Assembly (NCBI GenBank): GCA_973895155.1
Contig: OZ316892.1
Location: 22,917,168-22,981,167, forward strand
From: Marsupella aquatica
Lineage: Eukaryota > Plantae > Marchantiophyta
Direction of reading: 5' to 3'
Length of the DNA stretch: 64,000 nt
Position 1 is the first letter of the stretch, and each line of letters begins with the position of its first letter. The notes under the pieces were generated by a model. That model searched no databases and was not told the origin of the DNA. It saw only the letters and a list, made by a program, of their open reading frames with translations. Shown one piece after another: positions 13,301 through 63,012 of this stretch. A program made the translations under genes and the position numbers.

Positions 13301-13501
13301 CCAAATGGAGCCACGTTGCATAAAGCATGTATTATTTGTGATGATCTCCTTCACTCCCTGATTGAGATGAAGCATGGGAAATCCTTCTTCAAGAGGGCAG
13401 GACGAGGCAGGGGAAGAGGAAGAGGCAGAGGTAGGGGAAGAGGCCGCAGCCGAGGGAGAGGTCGGGGAGAAGACCCGCGAATGAGTTTCCGTGATTTTTA
13501 G
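7322..13501 (+). CDS. TOP3B: DNA topoisomerase III beta, ~15 exons
   Basis: Spliced exons encode MAPVVLM|[84 protein letters not shown] (catalytic Tyr), [19 protein letters not shown]-terminal Zn ribbons and an RG tail. Introns are GT-AG. Confidence 0.97.
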
Positions 13502-37960: not shown

Positions 37961-38672
37961 CCAGTGCAATATGTGTCTAGTCTCCGAGCTTCGAGGGTCT
38001 TGTCGACTGAGAGTAAGAAGTGAGGAGGATTCGAGTGTTCGGAAGAAAATCCAGTATCCATGTCAACTATGAACCAGAGCTGTCGGGACTCATCCTGTTG
38101 GTACAGTAAGCCCTGTTAGAATGTCTTACTTTGAAGCCCATGAAAGAACACAATTCTAGCTCTAGCTTCTCATGCGGCTCGGGGCAATACACCATGTCAT
38201 TGAGCTCCAGCGAGACCAATTTAGGGATTGACGTGTACAGTCGCATCTCTCTCTCAAGGTGGAAAGAAGTACCAGAGGTCCAGTCGCATCTCTCTCTCGA
38301 GGTGGAAAGAAGTACCAGAGGTCCAGTGGCTGCTGAAGCCATTTCATCAGAGATATTGACACGTTCTGCTGAAGCCATTTCATCAGAGATATTGACACGT
38401 TGGTGCTTTAGGTGAACATGGACATTCTCATTATTGTGCATTAAGAATTACCAGAGTACGCCTTGGTGAGCTCGAGTATAACAGGTGAGGATGCAGTAGA
38501 AGCCAACTTTTGCAGAAGCTGGTTCCATAACCGAAGAGGGACATAAATTGAACTGATCCATGTAAATGAGTAACTTGTGCATACCAATAAGTAGATCTAG
38601 GGGAAACGGAGTCCTAGATTAGTGCACTCCGTTCACAAAAGTCAGAAATCCCAGTCAAAGCGAGTGGGATCA
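37961..38672 (-). pseudogene. Inverted partial duplicate of the 5' region of the HNL gene (matches ~40838-41503)
   Basis: Reverse-complement matches include ccagtgcaatatgtgtctagtc vs gactagacatgtattgcactgg, aatccagtatccatgtcaac vs gttgacatggatactggatt, and aaagcgagtgggat vs atcccactcgcttt. The translation LNDMVYCPEPHEKLELE..FMGFKVRHSN parallels the HNL hydrolase start and carries frameshifts. Confidence 0.88.
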
Positions 38673-40335: not shown

Positions 40336-41247
40336 CTTTGTTCTCTAGATCTTGCCCTCGTAGTCTCTGTAAGGAAACCCCGCGAGCTTCGATTTGAAAG
40401 ATTCAGAGGACTGTAGAACGCCAACGGATTGAAGTACAGAGGAGCGGGAGCGAAAGTCCAGGGACTTATTCAACTTTAATTTGTTGTCTGATATGCAATC
40501 AAAGTCCGGCTGCGAATGATTCATACTTAGCGTGGGACATCGACAATGGGAGCCGGAGTTTACTCGTTGGAGAGAAGAGAAGGTACCGCTACTACCGCTA
40601 CTACCTCGATAAGGGATTTACTGCGCGGACGATATGACGGTTCCTCCATTGTGTCAGCTAATTTTGCAGTCCCAAGAGCATCCGGAGCTTTGGGTTTAGA
40701 CAGCGTGAGGTAGAGGACAGAATGGGTCGTTAAAATTGATGATACAAAGATTCATAGAATCCGCTTCACTGAATTTAGATGCGATATAGGATTTCAGTGA
40801 GATCTCCGACCGACCGTCCTATCGTTCTCATCACTCGATCCCACTCGCTTTGACTTGGATTTCCAACTTTTTGTGCAGGAGCACTTATCTAGAACTGCAT
40901 TTCCCGTGGTTCTCTCATTAGAGTGCGCAAGTTACTCATTATCATGGATCAGTCCAATTTAACGTCCCTGTTCGGTTTATGGAACCAGCTTCAGCAAAAG
41001 TTAGCTTCTACTGCATCCTCCAGTTCCCCATTTGTTATACCCGAGCTCACCAAGGTATTCCCTCTGGTCATTCCTTATGCACAATAGAGAATGCCCATAT
41101 TTGTCTAAAGCACCAACGTGTCAATAACTTTTTTCAAATGGCTTCAGCAGCTAGTGGTCCTCTGATATTTCTTTCCACCTTGAGTGCGAGATGCTACTTT
41201 ACACGTAAATTGTCAAACTGGCTAATTCTCGCTTTGCATTCCTGTAG

Positions 41248-44200
41248 CTCAATGACATGGTATACGAAGTGTATTGCCCCGAGCCGCAGGAGAAGGTAGA
41301 GCTAGAAATTGTGTTCTTTCATGGGCTTCAAATAAGACATTCTAACGAGGCCTACTATACCACCTGGATGAGTCACGACAGCTCTGATTTATGGTTGACA
41401 TGGATACTGGATTTCTTTCCGAACGCTCGAATCCTCCTCATTTCTTATGACTCTTCGGTCAACAAGACTCACAAGCTTGGGCGACTAGACATGTATTGCA
41501 CTGGCGAGAATCTGGTGTCTTCCCTCACTGCTGATGAAGTTAGAGTTGGTAAAGCCAAATGCCCGGTGGTTCTCGTAGGTCACTGCCTTGGTGGCCTCGT
41601 ACTGAAGGAACTTTGTATCAGTGCTGGAGCAATGATTGGCCAGAAAAGTGCTGAAAAGCTTGGACTTAACCGTGTTAAAGATCTTTTCTCCAACCTCCGA
41701 GGCATGTTCTTTTATGGAACGCCTCATGGAGGGTCGTCGTTCTGCGATAGCCTTCATGGCTGTCTGAGCGGTGAACTTCTTAAAGAACTCAAAACTCAGG
41801 AGGCCTCAACTGCAAGGAGGAATCAAAACTTTGATGATTTAAAGTCAAAGCATGGATGGCTTACTTGTGGAGTGGGTGAATCATACAAAACCTATGTGGT
41901 ATGCTCACTGTCTCCCTGATCTCAGGTTATTGGTTTCTTTGCATCCTACTTCGTTCATTGGTTACAGTCATTGCTTGTTTATCTTGTGAGATGGCTCCTT
42001 CCCTGTGTTTGATGTGTTTTGACTACTTATACAGCATCCAGTCTCCACGAATTGGTGTTTGTCGAAAGGGATGTCCTGGTTTTGAGGAGTTTGGTTTTAG
42101 CTTGCGGAAATAGTATCCAAACGACTTGTGTCTTATTTCAGTTGTGTTCGAAATGGGCCGTTCCTCATTCGACCACAACTGGCTAAGTTTTTCTGCCATC
42201 CAAGCTTACAGAACCGTTGCATCCCAGGAATCCCTTGGAGAGTATGTCCATTTGGTTCCTGAAGCTTCGAGTAGACAAAATATGGATTCGTACTATTCTG
42301 CTCCTGCAGACCATTATGACGTTTGTAGACCTCAAGGGAAGAAGTCTACTTCCTTCCTCCAGCTTGCAGATTTTCTTGGCAAGGTATGCCCACCTTCATC
42401 GTTATTTTCCTGAAACAACAGTTGCAAATTGTAGCAACACGTCCCACATTACAATTAGCAGCTCTAATGAAATCCACCAGTACTACTCTGTCGACTGTAT
42501 ATCTCTTTTCACCAACCTGTCCTTCGCTCTGCTTCGATAGCATCTCCCTGCTCAATGCGTTCATGTGAAATTTTGAAGAAGAGCGAGTAAAGAGAAGTTC
42601 TAGGAATGATGATTTGTCCAGCAAAGTCCAGGCAGGTAAATTCCATCAAAGAAAAGGAGAGCGGTTTGAAGGAATGACTTTTCTAGAAAGACAGACCTGA
42701 AATTTGATGTAGTCTCATACTTTTGAAGCTTCGTGTGAAATTATCCTTACCTAATTTTTCACATACATCGTTTTTCGTATGTAAGGTTACGCTAGCAGAT
42801 TTTATTGTTTCAAACTTTGGGGTTACCTATTTTGTACGATTGCTCTAAATACTCAGAATTTGAATTTTCTCTACTAGATGCAACGAGATGCAGTTTCTCG
42901 AACAAGAGCGGCGGTTGATGCCAAGTGCAGCCGAGAGTACTTTGTCGACATAAAAAGTCGCAGTCAGGCCGTGCAAGAAATGTTGGCGCGACCAGATACA
43001 GAAATGGTCGTCATCGTTGGTATGAGCGGTATAGGAAAGACGACATTAGCACGGCGGGTCTTCAACGAAATCAGTCACAACTTTGATGCTACTTGCTTTG
43101 TATCGTTGGACCGCATCGAAGCCTCATCAAATGGCAATGAACAGGTGTTACGAAAGATTCAAGATGCAATAGAAGGGGTCAACGGGATATCAAATCACAA
43201 GCTCTGGAGCGTCATTGCTTCCTTAAAGAAGGAAAAGGTGTTACTGGTTCTCGACAATGTCGAGTCACAGGGCCAGCTAGATGCCTTGGACACAGATTCA
43301 TGGCTGCTCGGAAGTGCTAGCAGACTTATTGTTACTACTATGGATGCTCGGCTTGGTTCCCGACGCAACACTTTTCAGGTCCCATATTTCAGCTATCAAG
43401 AAGCAGACCAATTGTTTCGGCACTATGCGTTTGAGGATGGCAACGGACCGAACGAGGTTGAGGATTTGATCTCGCGCGTGATACGGGAATGTGAGAATTT
43501 TCCTTTATCGCTCAAGCTTATGGGTGCTTATGTTAGCAAGTGGGACGATATCCGAGACAAACACCTTTGGCTTGATCTTGTCGACAGGCTGGGAAAAGCT
43601 CAAGAAGTGGACGGTGGTTATGATTACAGACTTTGGGCCAAGCTGAGGCTCTGCTACGATGCCCTGGAGCCGACTGAGAAAGAAATCTACTTAGATGTTG
43701 CCACCTGTTTTCACGGATTTCAATTCTCATTCGTGAAACATGTTTGGAATGGGTCCCGAGAATCGCCACACATAGCATGGATGAATTTGAGGCAACGATT
43801 CCTTGCGAATGTAGATGACGCGGGGAACATCTGGATGCACAAACATCTAAGAAGTTTGGGCCAGCGTATTGCATGTCCGAGAAGTCGGCCTCTCGACAAA
43901 TGGGAACGAATCTGGGACTGTTCCTCTGCTAAAGAGTTGATCTCAAACCATCAGGTAAATTTCAGATGGTTGCATACATTCTCTTGACCTCTCTGAGATT
44001 TTGTGCTTTTATTTCTGGATGATGTAAAGACTCTTGCTGCGTTCATTGGACTTTAAAAAATCACGGGATCGACAAAGCTTGATCGGGGGAACTAACAATT
44101 TCCAATTGAGTATTTACTCGCAGGGTATTGTGGACACTCAAGCTATGAAACTACAAGTCAGGAAATTCGAAAGCTTAACTCTAAGGAATACCACATTTCG

Positions 44201-46082
44201 CAAGTGTGTTCAGCTTAAATACCTGATATTGGACGGCGTCAAGACTTCAGTGGGAAGAATTGAACTCCCACAATCCTTGGTGTATCTCAGATGGAAAGAT
44301 GGGCTGTTCATTTCCTGCCCTGTAGATTTCACCCGGTTGGAGAAGTTAAAAGTTTTGGAGCTCGTAGATTGTAAAGCTATGAAAGCCCTCCCCCGTGGTG
44401 TTGCAACAGCTAGCAAACTCACTTGGTTGGAGCTAGAAGGTTGCCTCTCATTGACAGAGCTGGCGTTGGGACTTTCCAATTGTCTTGAATACTTGGGCCT
44501 GAATAGGACTGGCTTGAGGGAACTCCCGGGCGACCTTGTGAAGTGTACGGGACTTCAGCAGCTGAACGCTAGCCAGACACAATTGGTACAAGTTCCTCGA
44601 GCACTGGGCAGGCTTCAAATGTTGTCTTCACTTAATCTGAGCGGCACGGCATTGACAATCCTACCAAAATCTATCTGCGATCTCAAAGGGTTATCGGACC
44701 TAAATCTTTCCAATACAATGTTGAGCTCATTGCCTGAGAATCTTGGTCAGCTCCAAAACTTATCCTGGTTGTACTTAAATAACACGTCCATGAAGAGGCT
44801 TCCGGAATCAGTGGGGGATCTTTCAAAGTTGGAAAGTTTGGAGGTTGGTCAGACACCATTGGAAACTTTGCCGGATTCCATCTGTAAACTACGATCTCTG
44901 TGCTTGTTAGACTTGCACGATACCCAAATATCTACACTTCCAGATCAGGCGGGACAGCTTGTGAACTTGCAACTCTTAAAAGTACGCTCCCCAAGATGGA
45001 GAAGATGGCCGGAGACAATCGGAATGTTGTCAGGTTTAGAGGTTTTGTCTGCAACTCTATGTCCTTTCCGCAATAATCATGAGCTATCCTTGGACTTGAA
45101 GGATGTTGAAGGCGAAAACGAACAGGATGCTCTACCTCCCAGAGATGACCTATTACAAATCGGGATGGCTCCTCTTCTATCTCTATTACCTCGGCTGAAT
45201 GAGCTCGAGAAGCTAACTCTACAGGGCCGAGATTTTGTGGAATCCTGGCTTCAGTCTTTGATTTCTTCATTGTGCCAGATGTCAGGGCTTCTTGACTTGA
45301 GTTTGGAGGACTTTAATCTTGTGGAGTCAATCCCTTCCGAGCTAGGAAAGTTGACCCAGATAACAACACTGCACATAGGTCAGTGGGAGAGGCTCCTCGA
45401 GTTGCCAGAGTCCCTGGTCGAGCTACGCTTGCAAATATTGCAATTAGTGGATATTCCGAAGTTACGGATATTGCCCCAGCTGCCACACATCGCCTACCTC
45501 GAAATAATAAAGTGTGGGAGTTTGCAAAACATGCAGTGCCCTCTTTCACACAGGTCCTCGCACAGCAATTCTTCGGAGCCGACTTGGACGCACATAGAAT
45601 TGGATTCATGGAGAATATTGGAATGCATTTTGGAATGTAACAAGACACACCCCTGCCGTCACGTTGATGTAGTATTCTTGGCTGAGTGCAAGCATATGAA
45701 TGAGTTAGATAGCAACGTGGCCATGGAGGTGTTTAGCATTGACGTACGCTTGCCTCTCACACGACGGGAGAATGACATCGATGAAGCTTCGAGGACTGCT
45801 TCATCTCATTTCTCTAGTCGGACCCATCCGAACTTGCGCGTCAGGGTCCGCTGTCATGACCCTTACTGTGACGCACACACTGTCCAATATGACGACAGTA
45901 CCGTCCGCTACCCGTGTTACATCAACGTGGTGGACTCTAACGACGAGGGTGGTGACACATTTGTGGATGTCAAGAATGAACAGCACCGAGGAAACGAGGC
46001 GCTGATGTTACGAATCCTGCGGGCCTTATGGTTGTTTCTGCTTGGTCGCAACTGTTTTGGCTGTTATGGCTGTTATCCATGA
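41248..46082 (+). CDS. Alpha/beta-hydrolase-NB-ARC-LRR (HNL) immune receptor; 5' start exon unresolved
   Basis: Hydrolase: VFFHGL, VLVGHCLGGLVLK, FFYGTPHGGS, ADHYDVCRP. NB-ARC: GMSGIGKTT, LLVLDNV, SRLIVTT, NFPLSL, MHKHL. Many LxxLxLxxT.L..LP LRRs follow. Exons are about 41248-41898, 42228-42383, 42878-43954 and 44124-46082. Confidence 0.92.
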
Positions 46083-46878
46083 GGCGCAGTAAATGTTCAC
46101 TCTCAGCTCGTTTTTCAATTTCAGTCCACTGAGTGAAAGAGGAATCTGTCGAGACCTAACTCCCATAGCCAGCAATGGTTGACATTCAGCCTTCTATTTC
46201 CTCTACAAAGTGCCATCTCTAGGAGAGGTTTCAATCAATTTCTCACTGGGATCTGCTGGAAGTACAATCTACCATAGGACTGTCTTGCATGTGCAAGAGT
46301 CCTGAAAACTGCTGCCCTTACCAAGCCACAAATGTAGGGGAAAAGTTCAATCCAAATGTTTTGTTTTATTACATTTTAAAGGTTCGGGACCTCAAGGGCC
46401 GGAAATTTTCCGGCCCTTGCCATTGTATCTCCACAAAAGAAGCCATCAGGACTGCCGCCCTCTTGCTGCCTCAACTCATGACACGAGTTCATTTTAGGGC
46501 CGATTTGCAAAGGACCAAAGACATGCAAGACGGCCCTTAGCGTCTCGACTTTAAATATGTGCGCAGAGGCATCATAAACTATTTTCAAAAGAACCTTACT
46601 ATGAAACCCTTTTCACTTGGGTAGACGTAACAAGGTTTTCATTCACTGTAGCTCTGGAAGTATACCATGGTCATCAAGAAAGACACACAGCCCCAGGTAC
46701 CAAGATGGTACCAAGATGAGATTGGAGGGTCAAAACATACAACAACACAATGACATGGAGCCTACTAATTGTCACTTATCAACCTATCCAGTTAGATACA
46801 TGCAAATTGTCACTTATCAACCAGTCTTTACCCTGTCCAGTTAGATACATGCAACTAAGGAATGGCTGTAGGCAATGG

Positions 46879-47158
46879 TGTAGAAATTAGTTACGTTCCT
46901 TAATCAAGATGATCAACAACCGTTAGATGTACATGAATGAAATCCGGATATTGTGGGAGCATATGTAAACTTTGTAGTATGTAAATGCAGCTGATCAGCC
47001 AACGTAGGATTTAGGGATCTCTTCTGATTCATTGATTCTTTTCAGGTCTCCCTTCCTCAAACCTTTGCAGGGAGCTCTCCTGTGACTATTTATTGTGGAG
47101 CCCACCATCCACTATTGTATTGTATTCTTATCGTTAGTAAAACAGAATACTTTCTTCA
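46879..47158 (+). repeat. 5' LTR of the Copia element
   Basis: TG..CA ends, roughly 90% similar by eye to 62736-63012, followed by a tRNA-iMet-type PBS. Confidence 0.93.
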
Positions 47159-47444
47159 TGGTATCACAGCCGTCCTAGTAGTGGACCTGTAGCAGGAGCG
47201 AAAGCCTTGTAGAATCTTGAGCACTAGCAGAGTAGCAGGAGCAAAAGCCCTGCAGAATTTTGAGCAGCAACAGGAGCAAAGGCTCTACAGCTGTGTAGTT
47301 GGGATCTTGAATAGAATCAAGAGATCCTTGATCTTGTGTGTCTTTATTAGAGTTGTGAGTCAGCGTGACAAAAGCAACAACATTGTTGAGACCTGTACAT
47401 GAAGATATTCCGTAATCTTAGTTTCTGTAATTTGTTAGCTCACC

Positions 47445-48382
47445 ATGGAGCATCATTACATGACATCCAAGGAAGAGAAGTGGGATCGGATCTGGGCATT
47501 ATGCATGCAACAGATCCTTGAAGAGGAAAAGGTCTGGCAAGTTAAGGGAGAAGATGACTAGAATGTTGATGATGTTGAGCCAGAGGAAGTTAGGTGATAT
47601 CGAGGATCAACCTGATCCTCCCGCTAGTGCTCAACTCAGGGTCAAGAAACGCAAGGCGCTGTTTCTTTTGACTTTGTCCATTTTGGACACTGTCATAAGC
47701 CGCTACACCCAGGTAACTGATCCAGCTATACTTTGGAGTGAATTGAAGCGTGCACATGGAGCTAATACGACAAAGCGATGTAGGCTTCTTTGGAGGCAAT
47801 TGCTAACACTGAAGTTTCCTGAAGGACATTCGATGACCGAGAACTTCTGGATTCTAGGGACCATGCTTGCTCAGTTGGCAGTAGTGGGCGTGTTCCCCAA
47901 GAACAATGAACTTGTTGACATCGTTTTGGCTGCTTTCCTTTTCAGCTGGGATGCCTTCAAGTCCATGATTGCTGGCCGAGAGACTACTCCCACTTACATG
48001 CAACTTGAGAATTTGGCTCTGGCTGAAGAGCACAAGAGGAAAGATTGTCCTGAATATAATGAAGAAGCCCTTGCTGCATTTTTTCCTAGTTCTGGGCGTG
48101 GGCGAGGAGGCTATCCTGCCTAAGGACGTGGTCATCTTGATGGCACGTGGTGGACGTAATGGTTTTAAGCCTAGAAACCAGCAGCCACAACGTGGAGTCT
48201 GCCACCTTTGTGGAGACCCATCTCATTATGCTTGTGAATGCCCCACCAAGACATTGGAGTATCAGATTGAAGAACTTACTAACAGTTTGAATCACATGTG
48301 CAGTAACAAACCAACTGTCAATCTGGCAGAAGGCGATGCAAGCCCTGAAGAATATGTTGATGCTGAAGACAATGATGTCACT
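47445..48382 (+). pseudogene. Copia gag (UBN2-like domain plus zinc knuckle), frameshifted
   Basis: KALFLLTLSILD...DPAILWSELK...LLTLKFPEG and the CX2CX4HX4C knuckle lie in different frames. Confidence 0.85.
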
Positions 48383-50794
48383 CCCTGGGCCCCCACTCCT
48401 TTCTAATACGGGGAGGACGTGAGAACCGTTCAAGGGTCATTTTTATCCCTTCGGCGGTAATTTTTATAAATTGCTTACAATTCCGCAACCACCGCATATA
48501 TACCGAAACCACTTTGTAATTTTGTAAGACCCCTTGAAATGTCATCCTGCTTACTTTTGCGGAAGGGTAAATCAATAGGTAGCGACACGCGACATCATAT
48601 TATTGGTACACGTGTCAAATTATAATTGGTACACGTGTATTATCCTTACAGTATCCATATCTCCTTCATAAATTAAAATGTTAATACTGGCTATGGTAAG
48701 CTAGAAAAGTTTTGAAGGGAGGATTGGGGGCGATCCCGGGGCAATGGGGATGGACCAGGTGTGTGGAGTGGTGGGGGTTTTGGCGGGGAATTTAAGAAAA
48801 CACATCGGGGATGACTAAAACCGTTGGATTAGAGGGAGAGCGAATCGAAGCCATTGAATCGGCAATCCATGGCCTCGCCTACGTTATGAACCCTAAGGTT
48901 TAGGGTTTAGTCGTGAGACCGTCACCGCCCGGGGTCAGCCCCCCCTTGTACCCCTGCTCCTCATTCTTCCTTTGCGCTCGGTCTCACCTCGCCTCGTGCT
49001 CGCTCTCGCCTCGCACTCCCGCTCGCGCTCGCGCTCCTTGATGCCTTCTGCTTGCTCCTGGCTCGTCCGCCATCGCTGCTCGGCCGCCATCGTTGCTCGA
49101 CCGCCATCGCTGCTCATCCACCATCATTGATCCTCTGCCATCGCTGCTCCTTGTCCGCCATTGCTGCTTTGGCCTTGTCCACCATTGTCGATCCGCATCC
49201 GACATTGTTGGCCCTCGTTTGCCTGTTCTTGCTCTTGCCCAGCATCGCTGAGTGCTGGCTTTGAAGGTCCTTAGTTTGGAAGGTCTTCCCCGACATTGCG
49301 ATTGTCAAGGTCGTCTCAATCTCACCCACTCAAATGCTCTGTGAACCTTCCACATTTTTGGCATGCATTGTTATCTCCCCGGTTATGTCTTCAATGTTCT
49401 ATGCGTTGCCTCAATGTTTCCTGGATTTGGCTGTAATTGTGCCAACTTGCGGATTTGCACGCCACTGCATTGTGATTTGTAGGATTTACGTGCCTTTGAC
49501 TGCCAATGCATTTGGCTGGATTTCAATGGATTGTTCTAAGTCATTGTGACTATCCTTAAGATCTTGATGCGATCGACATGAGTGACATTTCATTGGATTT
49601 GCAAACGCTGCCAGCTTGCTCAGTGCTTCATTGTGGAGATGTTTTGCTTGCAGATCATTTTTGAGAAACCCAGTGATCGAAGGAGATAGTGAAAGCTTCA
49701 GTGTTGCGTGTTGACTCTTCTGGGAGTGGACACATCAATTGAGCACGGTAAGCCATCTGGTTTTCAATGTTGAGAGAGTTTTTCAATGGAAGGATGGATG
49801 TAGAGTTTACGTGCTTTTAGCTGATGCCTGTGGGCCTTTTCAGATATCATCGAAGGATACCCCCTGGAAGGCTAAGGAGCGATCACCTTCCGGTTTGGTG
49901 CAACAAGGTAACCCTCTCCCTGCATTAGACTGAACAAAACCCACGCGATGTAGTCCTGAATGTAGTGACAGTCCCTCAAGTGAACTGCATTTCTTGGTTG
50001 ACGAAAGTGCATTCACTATATATCGCCAAATGGCATTGCCTCGGATGTTGCAATTGCTCTTGAGTTCCTTTAGCAACCGTCTCTAGGACTTCTTAAGCTC
50101 TTCATTTCTGCGCTTAGGTTGAAGCGCTTGCCATCGCTCTTCTGATTCCTCCCCGGCTTCCTATGTCTTATTTTATTCTGCTCTGACTTGCCTTCTTCTG
50201 TTGCCTTAGGTCTGCTCTCATACTTAATCTTCCACCACTTTTTGGACTCCATTTGCAGCTCCTTCACTGGCTAGGGTGTTGGTCTGTAAGTAACGCTTTT
50301 CCTGGTTTGGTCGCAGACATTTGTAAGCAGCTGCAGTGATCATCCATCGGGCTTAGTTGAGCATAGTGGAGGTTGGAAGATTCAGCTTTGAGGAAGATTC
50401 AGCTTTGAGGACCCGGGTCACTACCAGAGGATCAGTGGACAAAGGAGACTGAGGTACGCACCAATCAGGAATGAACTTCCTTGGTCACTTGTATTGCGTC
50501 AAGGGTTAAGGCTGCAAGGTATTCATTTGCAGTTTGTGCAGTTGAGTTTGATAAACAAATTTTAATCTGGGATGGCTACCATTGCCCAAAATTCTGCAGC
50601 AAACTTTAGGTGAATCATCAAGGTTGGGGAGAGGTGGATCTCAAGGAGCTTTGATGTAACAAATCCAAAGCTCCACACGAAGTTGTGGGAGCGGGAAGTT
50701 TTGTCGATTTCTAGAGGCCAAATTAGTTAGCCAAATCCCTGAAACATTCGCTCTGTTTGCAATTTGTGATGCTCAGTTTGTCCATTTTTATAGT

Positions 50795-52573
50795 ACAGTG
50801 AGTGACACACCGGACGATGTTGTTGCAGGAGGATTTGTCGTGTGGACCAGCTTTGGTAGGCTTGATTTTCAGACCCTCTGTCTTTGCCTTCTACGGAGGT
50901 AACGGTGCAAAAGACACAATGGTAACCACCCGAAGCCAATCTGTAGGCCTTCTCTATGAGAAAGCAGTGAGGTTGCGACGTAAGCTAAAGGCATTAGGCA
51001 TGTTGAGAGGGACTTGGCCTATTGGCATTATGTTTGGTTCTAATCGTCCATCCCGTATGACCCGCCAAACCATGTGGGAAAAGTATGTCGATCCACAGTC
51101 CATTATGTTCACTCAGACGATGAATGGTGTTCAGATCACTGTTGGTGCAAGGTGTGTACATGCTTTGGATGCTCGGTGTCCAGCATGTGATGTAGATCCA
51201 GACGCGGACGTTAAGTACAATGAGGTTTTTGCAAAAAAGAGGGCCTGGAAAGTGTGTCAGCTCTGGAACACGGACCCTTTTGTGTTAGGCCTTGTAGAGC
51301 TTCAAGATGGCGAGTAGGTACATGCATAGGGAGGTTAAATTGCGCAGATTGTTAGTCTACGCAGGAGATTAGTTTGTGCAGGGATGATAGCCAAGTTAGC
51401 AGTTCACATGACCTCTTGAATGGTCATTTTGTAAGAGTGTATGAGCGGATGCCAACACTAATTTTTGTATCACCTATCATCAGTATATTATGTATTTGTA
51501 TGTCAGCCTCGGCCCTGGCAGTCTGAGTTTCTTTTAAGGGATTCGATGATGACTATTCTGCCATATGACCCAAAGGCATGGCACGAACACATACATATGC
51601 TGGTGGCCTTTCAAAGACTGTCAACTAACGCTCTTTTTGGAAATGGATCTTGTGGTAGCGGTGATGTCCAGTGGACGAGAGTTTGGTATTGAAGGAGGGG
51701 TATTGACGGAGGTGTGGTACAAGGCAACTGCTATCCCCCAACTAGGAAGGTAGTCATTTCCTTTTTGCCATCGTGTTCAAAACAAAATGTTGCTGTGTGT
51801 TGTGACCCCTGCATCATTGGTTTTTTGAAACGTCTGAGCTAACGTTTGAACATTATCATGCAACATACCAGCTTGTGCCCAACGCAGCTGCTACCGGCCC
51901 GGCCCCCTCAAGCTGCATTACTTGGCGGACCATTCTATCAGAGGTCCAAAAACTCTAGTCCAAGGTATGTACATATTCTGGACTTTGTGGTTCTTTCAAT
52001 TGTGCTCCATTATTTACCGCTTCTTATATAGTTCATATGTTTTAAGCTGCTAATGCACAGGGCTTTGTATCTTGCTCAGGTAAGATGTCATTTCAGTTTT
52101 GTCATTTTTTTGTACATGTAGGGCTCGTTTAATTTGCAGGGCCCATCGAGTTCAAGGAGACCATGGGGAAGTCATGCCCCCATTGGCGACTGCTGGATTT
52201 AGCCGCTGGCAGTCCAGCGCTCCTTGTAATTTCGAAGCAGGTTGCTTGGGGGAGTGTGTGATTAGAGCCTGTCATTATTGTGTCCATGGTTGTCACTTGT
52301 CATTGCTGTCAGCCCCTTAAGTCATGTATAGTCTGTTGTGGCCCTCACAACTGTGGAGGAGAAGGATTGGAGTGTGGGCCTGGCCCCAACTGTACATGGA
52401 CCAAGCACATATGGGACAAGCTGAATTGGGACAAGCTAAACTTGGGCAAGCTGAAATGGCCATGTGCAGATCCCTGTCCCTCTTGTGCTTACGCTGAATC
52501 TGGAGTCCTTGCATGCAAAGGGTACGCCCTTCCCACCCGACACATGTCGGAGAAAGCAGCAATGGATCTGTAA
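50795..52573 (+). pseudogene. Second, spliced gene of the DNA transposon (unknown product, Cys-rich C-terminus), with in-frame stops
   Basis: Putative exons at about 50795-51315, 51507-51749, 51888-51965 and 52140-52573. The last three join in frame across GT-AG junctions, with TGA stops at about 51690 and 52259. Confidence 0.45.
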
Positions 52574-53369
52574 CCAGCCAATCCTAACGAGAAATGGTCG
52601 GGATGGGGCAAGGCTCTCGTGGGATTGGTCCAGTGGATGCGGTCTCCACGTGTGGGTTGCTTAATATTGCCTTATAACCAATCTTGGTAGCCTACTTTGC
52701 TTTGATATCATGAATTTCTGTCCTCCTTTCTATCTCTCTCACACAATTCCATTGCCTTCAACAAGCAACGGTAAAGATCCAGCCTGTCTTATACGTAGTC
52801 AGCAGAATGCAATTGGCATGGCTTTGGAGGCCTTTCGGCAGAGGTCAAAAGGCTGGATCACATTCTACAGTCTCATTGTTGCTCGGGCGAAAGCCATATT
52901 CATTTTTCCGTGTGGCTTGAATGAGTACCACTTCCTTCTTGATGACATCCAAGATGTTATCAATGAGCTCAGGGATCCACTTGCCACTGATCGAGTTGAA
53001 ATGAGAATTGGGGCGGTTTGTTTAAACTATCAGATTAATACCTGTCGCACGCAGGCCCTCCATAGACTTCCTTTGGATGTTGGCCCATTCTAATAGGCCA
53101 GGTTGCTTGTTTCCCGCATTGGCCAACAATCATCAATCTGCCTAACATCTTTGTAACCTGTCTCTGGTAGAAGAATTGGTGCACATGATGTCCACATTGT
53201 GTGGTGTTGCGCCATGCCACCCAAGAAAGTTGCATTTTGGGTGAATATGTGGTTAGAATGAAATGAACCTATCCTATTTTGAGCAATCCCTATGTTGATG
53301 CTTCCTTTGTCATGTGGACTGTGCGCAGGCCCATGAGAGGTGGATAGGTTGTCAGTAAAGGGTGAGAGA

Positions 53370-56300
53370 ATGCCGCCTGCCACTTTGTTTCAAGTAGACA
53401 AAGAAGGTGGGGAAAGGAAACCTATATCGTCATATAGTTACAAAGCAGGGGAATCGTATGTTGATGCCCGACTGAAGTTGGAGGCACTACTCGATTTTGA
53501 CTTCCACTTTATTGATGTCAATCTCGCCACTCGGATGCCGGAGAAATGGGAGATCTGCAATCTTTTGGAGGATTGTGGGGGAAAGATTGTTATCATTCCC
53601 AAAAATGCCTTGGAGCCTCCAACCCCATTGGTGCACGTAGACCCTGGAGGCGCAGGGCAAGCCCTCGGGAGTAGCAATGCTTCCAATGGCCTTTCATTGC
53701 CAGAGAGTGATGATGCCGATTTTCCCATGAATGAGGAGCCTCCAGTGGAAGCTGATCCACACTCTGGTTGCCCCTTGCCAGAGCCTGAACAACAAGTCAC
53801 ATTCATGTCCACTCTTATGAGCAATACTTCAAAGGCAGTATGGGAAGCATCTACGGATAAGTTGAAGACTCACATGGAATCCATTAAATGTGCTGACCAC
53901 AAGTGGAAAGTGAGAACTTGGGACAAAGACAACATGCCCTGGGGGCATATCGAGTGTTGTGAGTGTGACAAGCGGGTGGAAGGGCTAGCAAAAGGTACAT
54001 TGATGGATAAATCATCCATCAATAATGCATTTACCAACTTCAAAAATTCGCATTTGCGATCATCAAAGCATGCAGCTCGGGTGGCTAGGAACAGGGGTGA
54101 GAAAGTTGGGCATGTGGAGATTGCAAGGAGGGCGCAGTCAAATACTTTGACTGATAGAGCCATACTTGACGAGCATTTGAAGATTGTAGCAAAGGTCAAC
54201 GAGTTGCAGACAGTTGGTCGCAAGACGTTTATAGTCGAGGGGGATGTCCATAAGGAACCAGTGGAGTTCCAAACTTTGAAACTGTTCTGCAATTTTTGTC
54301 TTCACCATTTGACTTTGGTACCCAAACAACGAAACTTGGAGGCTAATCTGACAAGCCATTGTACTGGCTTGATCCATCTTGATTATGTGGCCAAAAGTCA
54401 GAGGCCTACAAGAAACGAGCCAGTTTTGTCAGGGCGCCCTGGCAGACCCCGTACTGTGGACGGGAGGGATAAGAAACAGAGAAAAATTCAGGGGTTCTTG
54501 ACTCGCACCTCGACTGCAGGTGCATCAAGCAGCTCGTCAAGGATGTCAGCACGAGATGATGATAGAGGTACTTTCGATAATTTGTCATTGTTGTGTTGGG
54601 GTCTGTGGCGGGATGAGATAGAAGTAGGGTCAGAACTTAGGCCTATCAAAAGTCACCTACACGACCAGGTGAAAGTGGGTGGTGCGTGGTATGCAGAGCC
54701 CCTAGTAATGGCAGAGGTGTTCTGTATGTATAGTGAAGAAGCTTGTGAGATCAAGGGCCTTTTCAGGCATAAAGAATGTAGTCGAATGTCACAGTTGGGG
54801 GGCGGGTTTGATGATTTGACGTGTTCCAAGTGTTATTCCATTAAGAACATGAAGGACTTTAGACTTCGGGTAGCAAGAGAGGTCAAGGCCTATGAGAAAA
54901 GAGGAGAGAGAGGGACTGGCAAGGGCAGGCGGCTAGGTTGCCTCACAATTCCTGAGGTCCAAAACCAAGCTAAAGTATACAGAAACCGAATTTTGAGAGA
55001 GAGGAAGTTGCAGAAATATCTAAGTCACAAACTGTTGATGCTGAAGTCTCGGATCCCTAGTATAAAGGAAGTTTGTCTTGACTATCAAGGCCCCAATAAG
55101 GAATCTATCCTTAAGTTTTGTCAGTCCATAGTCCTTGCGCACAGGAAGGGTGCATTTGGTGGGAGAGGTGCATTGTGGGATATGTTATCTGATATAGCTT
55201 CAAACTTGAATACGACAAAGGAGGGATATAGGTTCAAGGCTGGAACAAAGCTCCTCTGCCAAACACTCTTCTTGCATGGTGGTCGACGTGTTGTTGACTG
55301 CCTTGCAAGTAATGGGATAGGGCCAAGCATAAACACCCTTCAACGGGACAGAAGAGGGATGGCAGTATTCCGAGCAGGAATCCATGCTGAACAATTTATG
55401 TTTGTCTCTCAAGTGTACTCCAAACTGAAAGTGAGACTCAACATCAAAGGGCCAGTTCCCTGTTATTTGGCAGAAGATGAGACCACTGTCAAAAAAACAG
55501 TAAGGTACTTTCTTCAGGCCCTCATGCATGATGTTGTACTTCAGGCCCTCACGCATGATGTTAGTCATGTCATGGTGTTGGATCCTAGTTTCACCTTTAT
55601 CTCTGTTTCAACTATTATGTAGGCTCCATCTGGAAACCAAGAACTCAGTTTTGGTTTCTTGCAGGTGGCTGCCAAAACATGACACCATGATTGGGTTTTG
55701 CGGCACCCAAACAGAGCATGTATGCCTTGTTGGGTGGGAGATAGAAGTGGGCGAAGGAGAACTTGGCTTCCACATCATCGTTGATGCTTTTGACAACAAT
55801 GTGGTAGGGCAGATGGCTCGTTGTATAGTAGTCAATTCCCTTGCAGAGGGATTCCCACGGTTGCTTATACTAGCTACAGGTACATGTAATAGATTTAAAG
55901 CTCCTTGGGTTAGAGAGCAGTGGGATATCCTGGAGTCATTGTGGAACACTCATTGTCTGGAGAGTGTGGGGCCTTTACTCGGCCATGCAAGTGACGGTGA
56001 TGCACGCAGGAGGAAGTTAATGTTGGAGGACTATACTGGTTGTCGGAAGGCAGGGCCAAGATTTAGCCTTGGGTGGGAAGGCTGGAAATTGAGCCACTCT
56101 ATGACAGGTGATGGGCCATTGACCCACGCTGTTGGGCTACATGACCAAGACTATATCCACAATGGGAAGAAGTTAGTGAACCCATTGGATTCTTCAGCTC
56201 GGATATTGAAACTGGGGACTCAAGTGGCCAACCTGAGTCATCTGAGACTCCTGTTAGGTTTATATGACCATGACCTTCATGGGCTGAACCATGATGATGT

Positions 56301-58119
56301 AACACGAAATGATAGGCAAAATTGGGCTAGTGCACAAAGGATTTGTAGTCGTAAGGCGGGTTCTACGCTGAGGATGTTGCGTCTGCGGAAGGATGCAAGG
56401 GTGGAGCTCGCACTTGGAACTGAGGTGTTTGTTCGTATATGTGGAGATTATCTGGATATATTCATGAACCCTCGGCTCACTCTACGGGAGAGGGTTGTAC
56501 TTTGTGGGAAGGTGGGTTTCTTCTTCAGACTGTGGCGCCTATGGTGCTTCCATGGGAACCATACTGTAGGGGGGAATACACAACCAATTACTTTCATGCG
56601 GAACTGTATCCCTATGCAAACCTTTCTTGATGTTCAAATGTCAGTCCATTTTATAGTTCTGTTGATAATCCAATTCCGAGACCACTTCAAGCATCTTCCA
56701 GTGCCTCTAGAGTTGACTGGCTCAGATGCGTGTGAGCAATTCTTCTCAAAAGTAGGGGGCATGAACGGTCGTGAGCGAAGCTATGACTTGTCAGAATTAG
56801 TGGAGTGTGCCACTAATCTTAACAGATTGGCTGCAATGGATGTATCAGAGGGATTGATGGGTGCTGGAAAGAGCCACAAAAAGCATTCGAACATTTGGAT
56901 GGATCTTCAATTAGATTCAGAGGCAGTTCATGTCTGTCCAGATCAGACAGATTATACAGGGATAGAGACAAATGCAGCAATCGTGGTTGCATTGCAGGAG
57001 GGATTAAGTTTGGCACAATGTGCTGCAACTGAGCTGGAAATGAATCCTTCAACATCTTGCAAGGATAAGCTATGGTGGAACTCACCGTGGAAAGTTGAGT
57101 CAAAAGGGGTGAAGTCTGGTGGATGGTGTGACATCAATGTGGATACACTTGTAGATGTACGAGATACTTTGGACATTCGAGATGTGCGACCTGCTTTGAA
57201 TGGTGAAGCCCAACCTCAAACTGTCACTGAGATTGATACAATGATTTTGGAAGCTTCACCTATTGTTACCACCCTGGGGATTGTAGCTGGCGCTGAGACT
57301 AAGACTGAGAGTTCCTTCCCTGGGATGTCTGTCCGTTACGTAGACGCTCATGTAGAGGAAGCTGCCTCCGAATTGTCTGCAACAATGAATATCATGCATT
57401 CAGACTTGTTGTATGGTGCACCAATTAAGCAAGTGAAGCCAACTGTGTGTTTTCAAGAGCGACAGATCTACAAAAGTACATTGGTTAGCCAGCTGATTGG
57501 AAACCCCCACTTGAGTAAGGACCGATTGACTCGTGTGAAACAGAGTGTGTACTTCAATAATTTAGTGGACAAACCCAACTATAGAGAGGGTGTACCAACT
57601 ATGTTCATGACAGTGGGCACTGTCTGTGGTGTTTTCTTCCTTGATGAAACACAACATGAGGTCAGGGCAACTCGAAACTCAGAGGCCGTAGCAAAAGCAT
57701 CCAAAGGGAAAGCAGGTGGAAGGAAATCAAAATAAAATGTGACCAATCCAAAGAAGCCAAGAGGAGATCCGGTAGCAGTGTGTTCTGCATCTGGGCCAAA
57801 GTATGTTTGGTGGATTGGCAGGGTGCAAAGCATCCACCGAAAGTATGGTAACAGTGTTTGCAGATCTAGAGAACCTTTGGATCTACTTGATAGACCTGGT
57901 TCCGAAGCTGCATGTCAAGTAGTGTTCAATTGGTTTACACCGGTTGGTTCTAGTAGGAACAAATTTGCTTATAATATGTGTGATCCACAGACCATTGACT
58001 TGGACTGTGTCATATCAACTGTGAGTTTTACAGTGGATCCTCTCTATCCAACTATTTTTAAGTTGCCTCCAGATGATGTGACTGCCCTCGACAATTTTGT
58101 AAAGAACAACATAGAATGA
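53370..58119 (+). CDS. P-element/THAP9-like DDE transposase; 2 exons (53370-55504, 55665-57735) and an in-frame C-terminal extension to 58119 after one TAA
   Basis: GPSINTLQR (HTH), LAEDETTVKKTVR|WLPKHDTMIGFCG (first D), GHASDGDARRR (second D), QDYIHNGKKLVN (D-x2-H), DRQNWASAQRI and TGSDACEQFFSKVG (catalytic E). The phase-2 GT-AG intron at 55505-55664 joins the two long ORFs in frame. Confidence 0.8.
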
Positions 58120-59215
58120 TGACCTGTATTTGGGGCAGGTACACTCCATGCCTGATGTTTATCATTCATCAGTTACACACCGGGGTAACACATTCTCCAG
58201 AGGAGCGAAGGTAGCAAGTTAAGATTTGAAAACATCCTAAGCGTATTCTGATATGTTATCTGTAAACCTTGTAGATCTGGTTGTATTCAATATAATACTC
58301 ATTCATGGTGTTGGTCCATTTGTGGATCAGGTGTATTGGAGACTTCGAGATGACTAAGGTGGGGACAACAGTGATGAAGAAACGCTCTAGACTGAGCAGG
58401 AGGAGAAGCAGACCCGGTACTGGAGGTCTGACAACTGCAGCAGCTGTTGTGGTTTATTCCAGAGTTCCAAAGTCAAGGAAGGCACAGGGGAAAGGCAGCC
58501 CTGATTACAGCAAAGAAGAGTGGAGCAACAAGGAGATAGCTAAAGAGAGTTCTGGAGGTTGTGGTTTAGGAATCATAGATGTTGTGATTCCTGAAGTAGA
58601 GGCAAGTGTGGAGGGGCTATGGAGTGTGATCTCTGTTCGAAAATCATATGATTTGCCTGCAATTGTCCCTTCCCATTTTTACAATCATATTTTTTGGCAA
58701 GCAGAATGGCCTGTACACATAAGTGACTATTCACTTATGAAGCAGACCAGCATTGGAAGGCATGACAGTGGGCAGGAGTCTTAGGTTTGTATTGTCTTAG
58801 GTTAGCTGCGGGGTTAGCTGATTCAATAGCTGATTCAATATCAATCTTTAGATTTATAAAGACTTACCATTTTCATCTCCTTTATAGAGCGGTTATATAC
58901 ATACATGACCAGTGGTAACTTGGTCTTCAAAAAAACTCTCCAGTTACATACTCGATTACATATATAAAGATTGCAGCATACCCGACAGCGTTAAGCATTA
59001 TCGCTCAATACAAATTGTAATATATGAAGAATAATTATTATTGCTCAAAATTCACTTTTGTAATACACTGAAGATATTTTAATAAGAGTAAATGTTTGGT
59101 TTTTTATAAAAAACAAGGATAATCTCTATAGGAGAAAAATTAATAAGAAGGGGTACGTGTGTAGGGGAGGCTCACAGGTATGATTGTATAATATACAAGG
59201 AGTGAGGACCCAGGG

Positions 59216-62200
59216 ATGTCACTGATCCGTTTGCTCCTGATCAGACTATTGAAGCTAATCTTACCGAATTAGCTGGAGTAACCAATAGTGATTGGTTCCT
59301 TGATTCAGGTGCTAGTATTCATCTCATTGGAGAGAAAGCTACGCTCTCCAATTTTGTACCGGTTACCACTGTCTAGCTCTTGTGTTACCACTATTGGAGG
59401 ATCAACATTGGATATCAAGGGCAAGGGAACCATCTCTTTTGACAAGAATAAAGTTTTGAAACATGTTTTGTATGTGCCATGTTAGTAAGAAGAATTTACT
59501 ATCTTTACGTAGGCAAGATTGCAGATCTTGGTCATACTAGCTATCATTTTTGATTCCAAGAATGCTTTTGTTGTGGACAAGAACCAACATATCTTCTTGC
59601 ATGGTTCTCATGACCACAGGAATAATCTTTATAGACTAGGGCCTACTCTACCGACCCCCCCGTGATTCTGATTCTCTGACCAATTGTTTATTACCTTCTG
59701 GTTTACGTCCTAATTGTAATACAACAGTCCTGACAATAGTGCCTGGCCCACTCAAATATTTTGTCTACAGCTGATTTATGGCATTTAAACATATTGGCCA
59801 TGTGAATTTTCAAAAACTTCACTTCATGATTTCTCAACATCTGGTCAATGGGGTACCTTTCTACCTCACATCAAACATTTCTGCACCAATTGTACTCATG
59901 CCAAGTAGACTCGTGAGCGCATTTCCAAGCACTCACGTACAAAGACCAGTTGACCTTTCAAACTTATTCACTCAGATTTTTGCGGTCCTTTTTCAGTTCA
60001 ATCTCTTACTAGGGCCAGATATTTATTTATTAAAGGGAAATTTGTGAAACCCCATAGAAAGGGAAACATAATACACATTAGCCACACTAGTTGAACCCAA
60101 GACCTGTCAGTCTATACTCAAGTGGGGTACCACAAAGTCTACTATATTCCATGCAAATCTGAAGTTGTTTGTTGTTTTCAAGATTTCAAGACAATGGTTG
60201 AAAACCAATCCAGCTGAAAATTGGTTGTATTCGATCTGATCGTGGTGGTGAGTACATCTCAGACAAATTTTATCATTTTTGCACCTCACATGGGATTCTC
60301 CAACACTTCACTGCAGCATACACTCCACATCAAAATGGTGTGGTTGAACGCAAGAACCGGACTCTTCTTAAAGCCGCTCGATCAAAGTCTTTGTTTTGGT
60401 ACTCAGCTTCCACGGTTTCTTTGGCACGAACTCATCAGGACCAGCAACTACATTCTGAATCATTGTTCCACTGCAGCTCTTCACAAAATGACTCCTTATG
60501 AGAAGCTTTTCGGTAAGAAACCTGATTTGTCTAATCTTTGTATCATCGACTGTGTTGCTTACCTTCACATTCCCACCCAACTACGATCCAAGTTGGATAA
60601 CAAATCCTTGTAATCAATCTTAGAGGGTTATGATGAGCAAACAAAAGGGTACTCATGCTATTCTCCAGTGCAACACAAGATCCTAATTACTTGGGATGTT
60701 CATTTTGACGAAATGCATTTTCGTTCCCCCTCTATCTATGCTCCCACTACTAAATTTTTGGATATTTCTGACTACAGTCCTCTGACTACACCGGCCTTCT
60801 ACACCATGAATCCCTTCCTCAGTTCGTCCGTCCCTCTCTCCACCGACTTCTCCTAGCAGCTTGGCGCCTTCAACATTTGCTCCAGCAATGCCACCGGCTC
60901 CACCTCCTCGATGACACTCCACCCATGAATGCATACCCAACGTGCCTCTTCAAGACTATGTTCTTAAACTGTCTGCAAAAGATTTGAATGCATGTGCCAT
61001 TGAAACCAATGATCCCATCAGTGACAACATCACTCTGGCTCAAGCTCTTCTTCACCCAAGATGGAATGCTTCTATGCATGAAGAATTGACAGAAATCCAT
61101 AAGCGCAACACCTGGACTCTTGTTGGTCTTCCACCAGATAAATGCCATTCCTTGCAAATGGGTATACAAACGCAAACCAATCAATGCCACTCATGCCCGT
61201 TTAAAAGCTCGACTTGTAGCCCGTGGAGACTATCAGAAACATGTCATCGACTTCTTTGATACTTTTGCACCAGTTGTGAAGTGGTCTACTCTACGACTCT
61301 ATCACTACCCTTGCTACATCACAAGGATGGACTACTTTTCATATGGATGTTGATAGTGCATTCCTGAATAGCAAACTTACTGAACTGATTTTTATGAAGC
61401 AACCGGGCTTTGCTGTTCCTAGATCTGAGCATTTAGTCTGTAGAGACAATAATTCTTTATATAGATTGAAACAATCCTTCCGGACCCGGTATGCTTCGTT
61501 ACATGCCATGCTTTGTGCATTAGGCTGGCAACGTAGTTCCTTTGACAATAATCTCTATTTCTTTTGCGATGCTTCCTCCCTTATGCTATTATTTACTCAC
61601 GTTGATGATTTCTTTGTTACTGGAAACAACCCTTCCACCATCGAAGCACTCAAGGCTTCCCTTCATACCAAGATCAGTCTCAAAGATTTAGGTCGCATAC
61701 GAAAATATCTTGGTATTGATTTTGATACTACCACTCACAAGATTACTATGCATCAAAAAGGATACTGTTCAGAGATGCTACACGAATTTCAGATGACAGA
61801 TTGCCTATCTGCATACACACCGCTTCTTGCTGGCACGAATCTTTATGCTGAATCCAATGCTCCCCTAGCCAATCCTGAGCTTTATTGTCGCATGGTTGAC
61901 AAGTTGATCTATCTCGACAACACTCGCCCCGACATTTCTTTGGCAGTCAGCATGGTTAGTCGCTTCATGCAACCCCCTCGGGCTGACCACCTTCAAGCTA
62001 CACGACATATTTTTTGTTATATCAAACACACTCTTGATTACGGCATGCTTCATCCCCGTGGAATCAGTCTTAATTTAATTGGTTTTACTGATGCTGACTG
62101 GGCAGCTTGCCCATCTACTTGCCAATCTGTTGGTGGCTACATTTTTTAGATTCGAGGTAGTCCAGTTGCCTGGAACAACATGCGGGCTACCACTTCCCGA

Positions 62201-62640
62201 TCTTCCACTGAAGTCTGAATGTATGTCATTATCTAATGGTGCTCAGGAAGCTGTATATCTCAATGCATGAACTACAACTCATTCCGGATGGTCAAATCCC
62301 TCTTTACAAGGATTCTATCTTCCCAATTCCTCCCTTCAGATTTTCTGTGACAATCAAGGTGCTATTAAATTAGCCAAGAATCCTGTTTTTCGGGCCCGCA
62401 CTAAACACATTGAGATCCATCATCACTTCATTCACGAGTAAGTTTTGGAGGGGGAGATTCAACTACAGTATGTATCCACTGAAGAGCACTGAAGAGCAGC
62501 CATCCATCATCACTTCATTCACGAGTAAGTTTTGGAGGGGGAGATTCAACTACAGTATGTATCCACTGAAGAGCAGCCTGCCGACATACTGACCAAAGCT
62601 CTCTCATGACCCAAATTTGAGAGACATCAGGCAGACATTG
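59216..62640 (+). pseudogene. Copia pol (protease-integrase-RT-RNase H), degenerate
   Basis: [100 protein letters not shown]. Confidence 0.92.
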
Positions 62641-62735
62641 GCATAGTTGACTTATCCTGACTTATCCTGCAATCGGCAGAATCCTTCAGTTGGTTTACAA
62701 TTTTGATTAGGGAACTAGGGGGAACTAGGGGGGAG

Positions 62736-63012
62736 TGTCAAAATTAGTTATGTTCCTTAATCAAGATGATCAACCGCCATTAGATGTACATGAATGAAAT
62801 CCGGATATTGCACGAGCATATGTAAACTTTGTAGTATGTAAATGAGGCTGATCAGCCAACATGATATTTAGGGATCTCTTCTGATCCATTCATTCTTTCC
62901 AGGTCTCCCTTCCTCGGACCTTCCCAGGGAGCTCTCCTGTGACTATTTATTTTGGAGACCACCGTCCACTATTGTATTGGATTTTTATCGTTAGTAAAAT
63001 GGAATTTCTTCA
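62736..63012 (+). repeat. 3' LTR of the Copia element
   Basis: Preceded by the polypurine tract AGGGGGGAG and followed by the TSD AATGG. Confidence 0.93.

Follow-up and report, generated by a model that had tools for sequence, protein, structure and literature searches.

DNA transposons of the P superfamily are on record for animals and Trichomonas (PMC3698922) and, in rare cases, for fungi (PMC5751038), and the superfamily's transposase has been described as the sole transposase with guanosine triphosphate (GTP) as a cofactor (PMC7776569). In land plants, the transposons with terminal inverted repeats (TIRs) covered in a 2022 review belong to six superfamilies, namely Tc1-Mariner, hAT, Sola, MuDR, PIF-Harbinger and CACTA (PMC9033089). 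Here, we describe a 10.8-kb DNA transposon in a 64,000-nucleotide stretch of the genome of the liverwort Marsupella aquatica (hereafter, the window), to which an earlier reading of the letters alone (the sequence-only reading) had drawn attention. Taking structure prediction together with sequence comparisons, we hold it highly probable that this element encodes a divergent P-superfamily transposase and was moved by cut-and-paste into an older Copia retrotransposon.

Element boundaries and the disrupted Copia copy

The element and its surroundings are delimited as follows, where TSD stands for target-site duplication and LTR for long terminal repeat:

48383..59215, the transposon, 10,833 bp, bounded by TIRs and TSD
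48375..48382, + strand, left TSD copy, 8 bp, ATGTCACT
59216..59223, + strand, right TSD copy, 8 bp, ATGTCACT
48383..48401, + strand, left TIR, 19 bp, starting with CCCTGGG, CCCTGGGCCCCCACTCCTT
59197..59215, - strand, right TIR, 19 bp, its reverse complement reading CCCTGGGTCCTCACTCCTT
46878..63012, + strand, decayed Copia LTR retrotransposon harbouring the insertion, recognized by its LTRs, Pfam domains and restored frame

Both the 19-bp TIRs, identical at 17 of 19 bases, and the perfect 8-bp TSD were found as the sequence-only reading had described them. When lengths from 2 to 14 were tried, the flanking duplication was exact at 8 bp only. Inverted matches at the 17/19 level are by themselves not uncommon and amounted to 123 pairs in the real window vs. 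3–5 per shuffle (three shuffles), and an exact 8-bp flanking duplication accompanied one of the 123 real pairs and none of the shuffled ones, by which a chance pairing of TIRs and TSD was ruled out.

In-silico excision of the element together with one TSD copy yielded an unbroken Copia frame that runs from the zinc knuckle into the protease and contains WFLDSGAS, which we take to be the Copia protease motif. Further, Pfam detected a Copia gag on the upstream flank and a retroviral SH3 domain on the downstream flank, and the whole is bracketed by LTRs at 46878-47158 and 62735-63012 that share 88.6% identity, with many stops in the Copia element. Because of the restored frame, the Pfam domains and the bracketing LTRs, we conclude that an older Copia copy was the target of the transposon's insertion. 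The interval 48383-59215 is a genuine full-length DNA transposon with intact ends.

The transposase and its placement

Two long overlapping frames inside the element are joined by a GT-AG intron into one two-exon gene, with the following parts:

53370..55504, + strand, transposase exon 1, 52% identical to protein P0108 of Calypogeia fissa over 739 columns, and modelled
55505..55664, + strand, GT-AG intron of 160 bp, phase 2, across which P0108 aligns without a gap; intron also found in relative L014
55665..57735, + strand, transposase exon 2, ending at a premature TAA (57733-57735)
57736..58119, + strand, in-frame tail beyond the premature stop, through which P0001, P0002, P0005 and P0108 align

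Counted through the premature stop, the full transposase comprises 1,529 codons, and the gene model is confirmed by P0108, likewise of 1,529 amino acids (aa), whose alignment starts at the first methionine (53370), extends as far as 58104 and shows 52% and 58% identity. The related locus L014, which is 72–79% identical, carries a GT-AG intron at the equivalent codon position. In this copy, the frame halts at the TAA after 1,401 residues and the final 128 codons are cut off, at a site past which all four homologues listed above read on. The catalytic core is intact, and the copy is probably crippled by loss of the C-terminal domain through the nonsense codon; it would be mobile only by means of the truncated enzyme or of a sister copy's transposase. 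The very long open reading frame (ORF) announced by the sequence-only reading is thus a long coding sequence, though one divided over two exons and stopped 128 codons early, and the word "complete" suits the DNA ends of the element but not its protein.

With regard to domains, exon 1 is predicted to start with a ubiquitin-like domain (aa 1-80; Z 8.0, middling, in the model of the window's exon 1), followed at aa 140-260 by an HPF-like alpha/beta unit (Z 7.6, also middling) bearing Cys/His zinc-finger-like residues. A second repeat of this Cys/His type comes after the HPF-like unit, the two spanning approximately aa 140-345, and the exon further holds a Cys cluster, a coiled-coil segment, a helix-turn-helix motif (HTH) and the first catalytic residue, D703 (nt 55476). 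Foldseek returned nothing at E ≤ 1e-3 with the exon 1 model. No THAP domain was matched by Pfam in exon 1, where the model shows the ubiquitin-like and other zinc-finger-like N-terminal units. Exon 2 encodes the RNase H core with D822 (nt 55993), D874xxH (nt 56149), a helical insertion domain, D1066 and E1069 (nt 56734), so that the DDE/DxxH motif series read from the letters alone is present as D703, D822, D874xxH and E1069. The tail after the stop corresponds to most of a C-terminal beta-barrel with a weak likeness to BAH and chromo domains (Z up to 6.9 to BAH); sequence comparisons gave no support to the BAH reading, which is therefore a lead only. Small C-terminal domains vary in other members of the family (Tudor, PF21743, in P0076 and P0132; C1_2 in P0295), a pattern suggestive of accessory modules having been acquired more than once.

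Since the catalytic domain is split by the intron, the homologue P0005 was folded instead, and its predicted model (51% identical over the core; predicted local distance difference test score 82.7) was compared with 48,161 solved chains. It matched the Drosophila P transposase (6p5a) with Z 24.4, a root-mean-square deviation (rmsd) of 3.5 and 376 of 442 residues aligned at 14% identity, while the runner-up folds were ISCth4 of the Mutator type (Z 8.6), RAG1 (8.0), Transib (7.7) and Hermes of the hAT type (7.3). The sole two Foldseek matches of this model at E ≤ 1e-3 were two P transposase structures. In line with these results, the best PDB match of a 72-sequence family profile was the P transposase (E 2.7e-4), with the HTH and the AEDE/AFDE motif at D230 aligned; a phmmer search of the core against the PDB found no transposase. 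In the ESM Atlas, the top clusters were of the P/THAP9 type (0.93–0.94), and the unnamed clusters near the query were mostly from Basidiomycota. The P transposase is described as having a DDE signature with (C/D)xxH after the second D and, in Drosophila, a distance of 192 aa from DxxH to E (PMC8230255). Here, this distance is 195 aa, and the catalytic columns are kept in most of the 72 rows (D703 in 65, D822 in 70, D874 in 70, the H of DxxH in 72 and E1069 in 71). The assignment to the P superfamily proposed from the sequence alone was therefore upheld by fold and by profile, the fold and the Foldseek comparison having been run on the homologue P0005, and P, rather than hAT or MULE, was the best structural match among the solved chains compared.

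Other superfamilies were also considered, and hAT and MULE were rejected on fold scores. For hAT, which has an 8-bp TSD in common with the element, Hermes aligned with an rmsd of 7.7 and the Foldseek E-value was 0.06, in addition to the low Z. MULE/Mutator elements have TSDs of 9–11 bp, vs. 8 bp here, and ISCth4 aligned with an rmsd of 6.6. RAG/Transib and piggyBac were likewise ruled out on fold scores. Kolobok elements have a TTAA TSD, which the TSD here is not; Pfam gave no match to Kolobok or KDZ-Zisupton families, of which no structures were among the fold lists.

Several observations weigh against membership in P. A narrower, 61-sequence profile did not find the P transposase in the PDB. 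None of 12 window ORFs matched a Pfam P family, so that the Pfam comparison suggested along with the sequence-only reading came out negative; the only match inside the element was YjeF_N at E 0.02, which was treated as chance. PF21787 was touched weakly by 4 of 61 homologues (best E 2.6e-4), and none of 24 further proteins matched a Pfam P family; such a family serves as a profile for detection and does not define P membership biologically. The catalytic-core fold comes from a 51%-identical homologue and not from the window's spliced protein. The element has neither a THAP domain nor a CA terminus, whereas P-element TIRs usually start with CA, as in the zebrafish element Pdre2. No TSD was found at L001 and L002, two of the four metagenomic relatives for which both ends were recovered, which could be explained by collapsed assemblies. 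Finally, the GTP-domain stretch of the profile alignment scores 1.5 bits only. By this weak alignment, about three (S409, D444 and D528) of the eight residues described as contacting GTP in Drosophila P (K385, K400, V401, S409, F443, D444, N447 and D528; PMC7776569) appear kept. Cleavage by P transposases depends on GTP and leaves 3' overhangs of 17 nt.

These features could also be accommodated if the lineage were an unnamed sister superfamily of P, separate from it, with the same fold and with ends, a DNA-binding module and cofactor needs of its own, a reading that we consider unlikely. In its favour are the low (14%) identity in the structural alignment to Drosophila P, the blindness of the Pfam P families to the lineage, ends of the form C-Y-C-N-G-G-G rather than CA, the lack of a THAP domain, the five of eight GTP-contact positions that appear changed in the weak alignment, and the size and coherence of the family, with its 1,036 clusters at E ≤ 1e-30. 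However, TSD length, the D/D/DxxH/E signature, the length of the insertion domain and the HTH all fit P; the THAP domain is described as animal-restricted, so that its absence does not set plant members apart from P (PMC7776569); and in P0398, a distant member, the motif of the insertion domain is of an intermediate kind. Membership of the element in the P superfamily itself is, as modelled, very likely.

Ends, hosts and gene content of the lineage

A metagenome scan identified 106 relatives, from which 80 loci were kept, and a pattern-free TIR search covered 40 of 81 loci. Convincing TIR pairs around the transposase were found in three of these 40 loci, i.e. L001 (6.0 kb), L002 (8.8 kb) and L004 (6.1 kb), with TIRs of 15–46 bp starting with CTCAGGG, CCCGGGG and CTCGGGG, respectively. 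The terminal pattern C-Y-C-N-G-G-G-N4-CA(C/G)T, first found pattern-free, is common to the window element and these three loci, and a search with this pattern then added L034 (7.5 kb) as well as single ends. An 8-bp TSD is present in two of the four relatives having both ends, namely L004 (GTTTTCAT) and L034 (GTTACAGC), the latter having a more extended C/G run on the left; the check for 8-bp TSDs in other copies, proposed at the outset, was thus positive for these two relatives, and negative for L001 and L002 as stated above. Further, L011, L012 and L013 have one common right end, from which the flanks diverge from the next base on. Judged by these sequences, the CCC-type end is a lineage-wide trait, because related loci carry C-Y-C-N-G-G-G ends with differing flanks, and the atypical, non-CA termini remarked on earlier are common to the whole lineage.

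L004:192-6287 combines 26-bp TIRs and its 8-bp TSD with a single uninterrupted frame of 1,520 codons, and is a candidate active element. L001:58-6071 is a complete 6.0-kb element of the lineage with 46-bp TIRs that nearly fills a 6.2-kb contig in a Planctomycetota bin. In the comparison with prokaryote genomes, it was the one relative out of 86, and is probably a eukaryotic contaminant of the bin rather than a bacterial member. None of 19 pattern matches in viral contigs was a relative.

Inside the ends of the window element, the following candidate sites were noted:

48419..48423, + strand, left subterminal GTGAG, candidate transposase binding site, nt 37-41 from the end
59171..59175, - strand, right subterminal GTGAG, nt 41-45 from the end

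A GTG(A/C)G motif starting 33–47 nt inside the end was present at 12 of 20 ends vs. 4 of 285 background windows; the motif was chosen after viewing the first 10 ends, of which eight match, and among the remaining 10 ends there are four matches, including two near-identical ones. We infer that GTG(A/C)G is a putative transposase binding site, its position recalling the internal binding sites of P. By analogy with the end binding, pairing, excision and insertion described for Drosophila P (PMC7776569), the transposase would bind this subterminal motif via zinc fingers standing in for THAP and would then pair both element ends; the D703/D822/E1069 triad would cut the DNA, and the ends would be joined to the target with an 8-bp stagger.

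A full HMMER scan for relatives of the transposase counted 5,678 clusters when the threshold was set at E ≤ 1e-3; at E ≤ 1e-30, the number of representative clusters was 1,036. Among 96 matches plus the best 120 of 273, most of them unnamed, the named relatives come from Riccia sorocarpa, Riccia fluitans, Calypogeia fissa, Adiantum nelumboides, Amphiura filiformis and Clytia hemisphaerica. Nearly all are labelled hypothetical, unnamed or uncharacterized, with one Riccia record entered as "Transposase" (UniRef). No seed-plant name was seen among the named matches, which is weak evidence because few matches carry names. Core trees, unrooted and without an outgroup, were built from 152 of 218 rows (near-copies removed) and from 52 of those 152. 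In the 52-row tree, the window protein groups with Calypogeia (support 99), and the named plant proteins P0108, P0008, P0010 and P0141 fall together with it on one side of a branch with a Shimodaira–Hasegawa-like approximate likelihood ratio (SH-aLRT) support of 99 (0.998 in the 152-row tree). Amphiura sits in a separate group with three EukProt records, which are presumably animal. The bryophyte P-like lineage envisaged by the sequence-only reading therefore holds in that there are liverwort relatives, the nearest named one being Calypogeia, but the lineage, with further members in a fern and in marine animals, is not confined to bryophytes.

The sequence-only reading had further called the lineage possibly undescribed, which holds for the literature searched; curated repeat libraries lie beyond that scope. 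No description of the lineage, or of P elements in bryophytes or ferns, was found in the literature search, to which Repbase, Dfam, subscription journals and genome-paper supplements (which may list "DNA/P" repeats) were external. It is quite possible, though on balance doubtful, that Repbase or Dfam already has a curated entry for the lineage, e.g. under P or "P-Fungi", and that the element is merely a new member. The class label "P-Fungi" is in use, with automatic assignments in the genome of a flowering plant (PMC12211168) and in a rust fungus (PMC6136362), the unnamed Atlas clusters nearby are mostly from Basidiomycota, and relatives are present in well-studied animal genomes. Against this, P is not included among the six land-plant TIR superfamilies in Table 1 of the 2022 review (PMC9033089), no title or abstract opening describing the lineage was found, and the named homologues carry the uninformative labels given above, apart from the one "Transposase". 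A broader picture, which we put forward tentatively and rate as rather improbable in its entirety, is that of an unnamed, eukaryote-wide P-like branch, hidden from Pfam and present in land plants since before the liverwort–fern split, with its own C-Y-C-N-G-G-G ends and GTG(A/C)G sites; its GTP pocket would have been rebuilt or dropped, and a BAH-like histone reader would guide new insertions towards silenced chromatin, for instance that of old retrotransposons.

The extra genes that the sequence-only reading had attributed to the element were sought in the regions outside the transposase, which contain:

48402..53369, no strand assigned, 5-kb 5' region without a supported gene
50817-51317, ORF of 166 codons in the 5' region
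52710-53093, ORF of 127 codons in the 5' region
58305..58784, + strand, ORF of 159 codons on the 3' side, without support for being a gene

The 5' region also holds a telomere-like repeat near 48890-48910, a 17-bp tandem array at 49056-49157 and several splice-like sites. Comparison of 85 frames of at least 40 aa outside the transposase with 81 loci and 148 proteins gave no credible match (best E 0.007), tblastx of the same regions gave none, and for the candidate ORFs, three in number, neither an exact database record nor a Pfam family nor a PDB match was found. The closest loci are too short to cover the 5' flank, so that these comparisons leave extra genes without support but do not disprove them.

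That the element is a multi-gene or gene-capturing transposon, its 5' 5 kb encoding accessory proteins, nonetheless appears very unlikely to us. The ORFs of 166 and 127 codons, the splice-like sites and the length of the element, which exceeds that of the relatives with both ends (6.0–8.8 kb) by 2–5 kb, speak for it, as does the mildly transposase-like codon usage of the ORF at about 50802-51317 (0.055, third of 35 non-transposase ORFs), in a weak test in which the known coding tail scored just 0.036. Against it stand the negative Pfam, locus and protein, tblastx, record and PDB comparisons, and the fact that L004, at 6.1 kb, bears the transposase as its single long ORF; L002 has one long ORF plus an ORF of 174 aa without a Pfam match. 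As far as can be told from its sequence, the element holds one supported gene, the transposase, and the additional 5 kb most probably consists of filler, either non-coding or decayed. The proposal of a multi-gene element found no support.

Elsewhere in the window, an alpha/beta-hydrolase-like ORF (weak, E 0.003–0.005), an NB-ARC ORF and a leucine-rich repeat (LRR) ORF lie in a row at 41248-46082, likely forming a nucleotide-binding leucine-rich repeat (NLR) gene of the HNL class, i.e. hydrolase–nucleotide-binding site (NBS)–LRR. This gene class has been described from a liverwort (PMC3352924), and its presence supports a liverwort host. An imperfect inverted repeat of approximately 600 bp (37960-38591 and 40914-41505) surrounds about 2.3 kb, its right arm overlapping the start of the hydrolase ORF, and could be an inverted duplication of the hydrolase exon or a foldback element. 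A 37-bp repeat array at 31941-32765 includes one inverted block (32569-32640). Pieces of a type IA topoisomerase gene, an NIF-phosphatase-like ORF and an FHA-domain gene are found at 10761-13501, 1746-2807 and 29880-30530, respectively.

Significance and comparison with described P elements

Together with its liverwort and fern relatives, the element would add a seventh TIR superfamily to land plants, and the blindness of the Pfam profiles shows why a land-plant P lineage was missed. A natural relative whose GTP pocket appears altered makes the GTP-cofactor rule testable. L004 and other relatives in which matching ends enclose an unbroken ORF are ready candidates to be tried in excision assays and as a bryophyte tagging tool.

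The element resembles Drosophila melanogaster P (6p5a/6pe2) in its 8-bp TSD, short TIRs and likely internal binding sites (PMC7776569, PMC8230255) and, according to the models, in the HTH, the split RNase H domain with D/D/E and DxxH, and an all-helical insertion of approximately 190 aa. In contrast with Drosophila P, it is 10.8 kb rather than 2.9 kb long, its transposase has 1,529 aa rather than 751 aa, and its TIRs measure 19 bp rather than 31 bp and start with CCC. A predicted ubiquitin-like and zinc-finger N-terminus is found here and no THAP domain, and a weakly BAH-like beta-barrel stands where P has an acidic C-terminal domain; about three of the eight GTP-contact residues are kept (weak alignment), at an overall identity of 14%.

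A TSD of 7–8 bp, short TIRs and subterminal repeats are also described for zebrafish Pdre2/THAP9 and for 1360 and Galileo of Drosophila (PMC10983969, PMC3698922). By these descriptions, however, the TIRs of Pdre2 start with CATAC, and zebrafish THAP9 has the GTP residues and a THAP domain. With the fungal P and "P-Fungi" elements, the lineage has in common an occurrence of the P superfamily beyond animals (PMC5751038), and the nearby Atlas clusters are rich in basidiomycetes. P0108 of Calypogeia fissa and the proteins from Riccia sorocarpa, Riccia fluitans and Adiantum nelumboides belong to the same family, form one well-supported group with the window protein and are annotated only as hypothetical or unnamed save for the Riccia "Transposase". 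Compared with these systems, the element stands out as a distinct variant of the P superfamily in its ends, domain make-up and host range.

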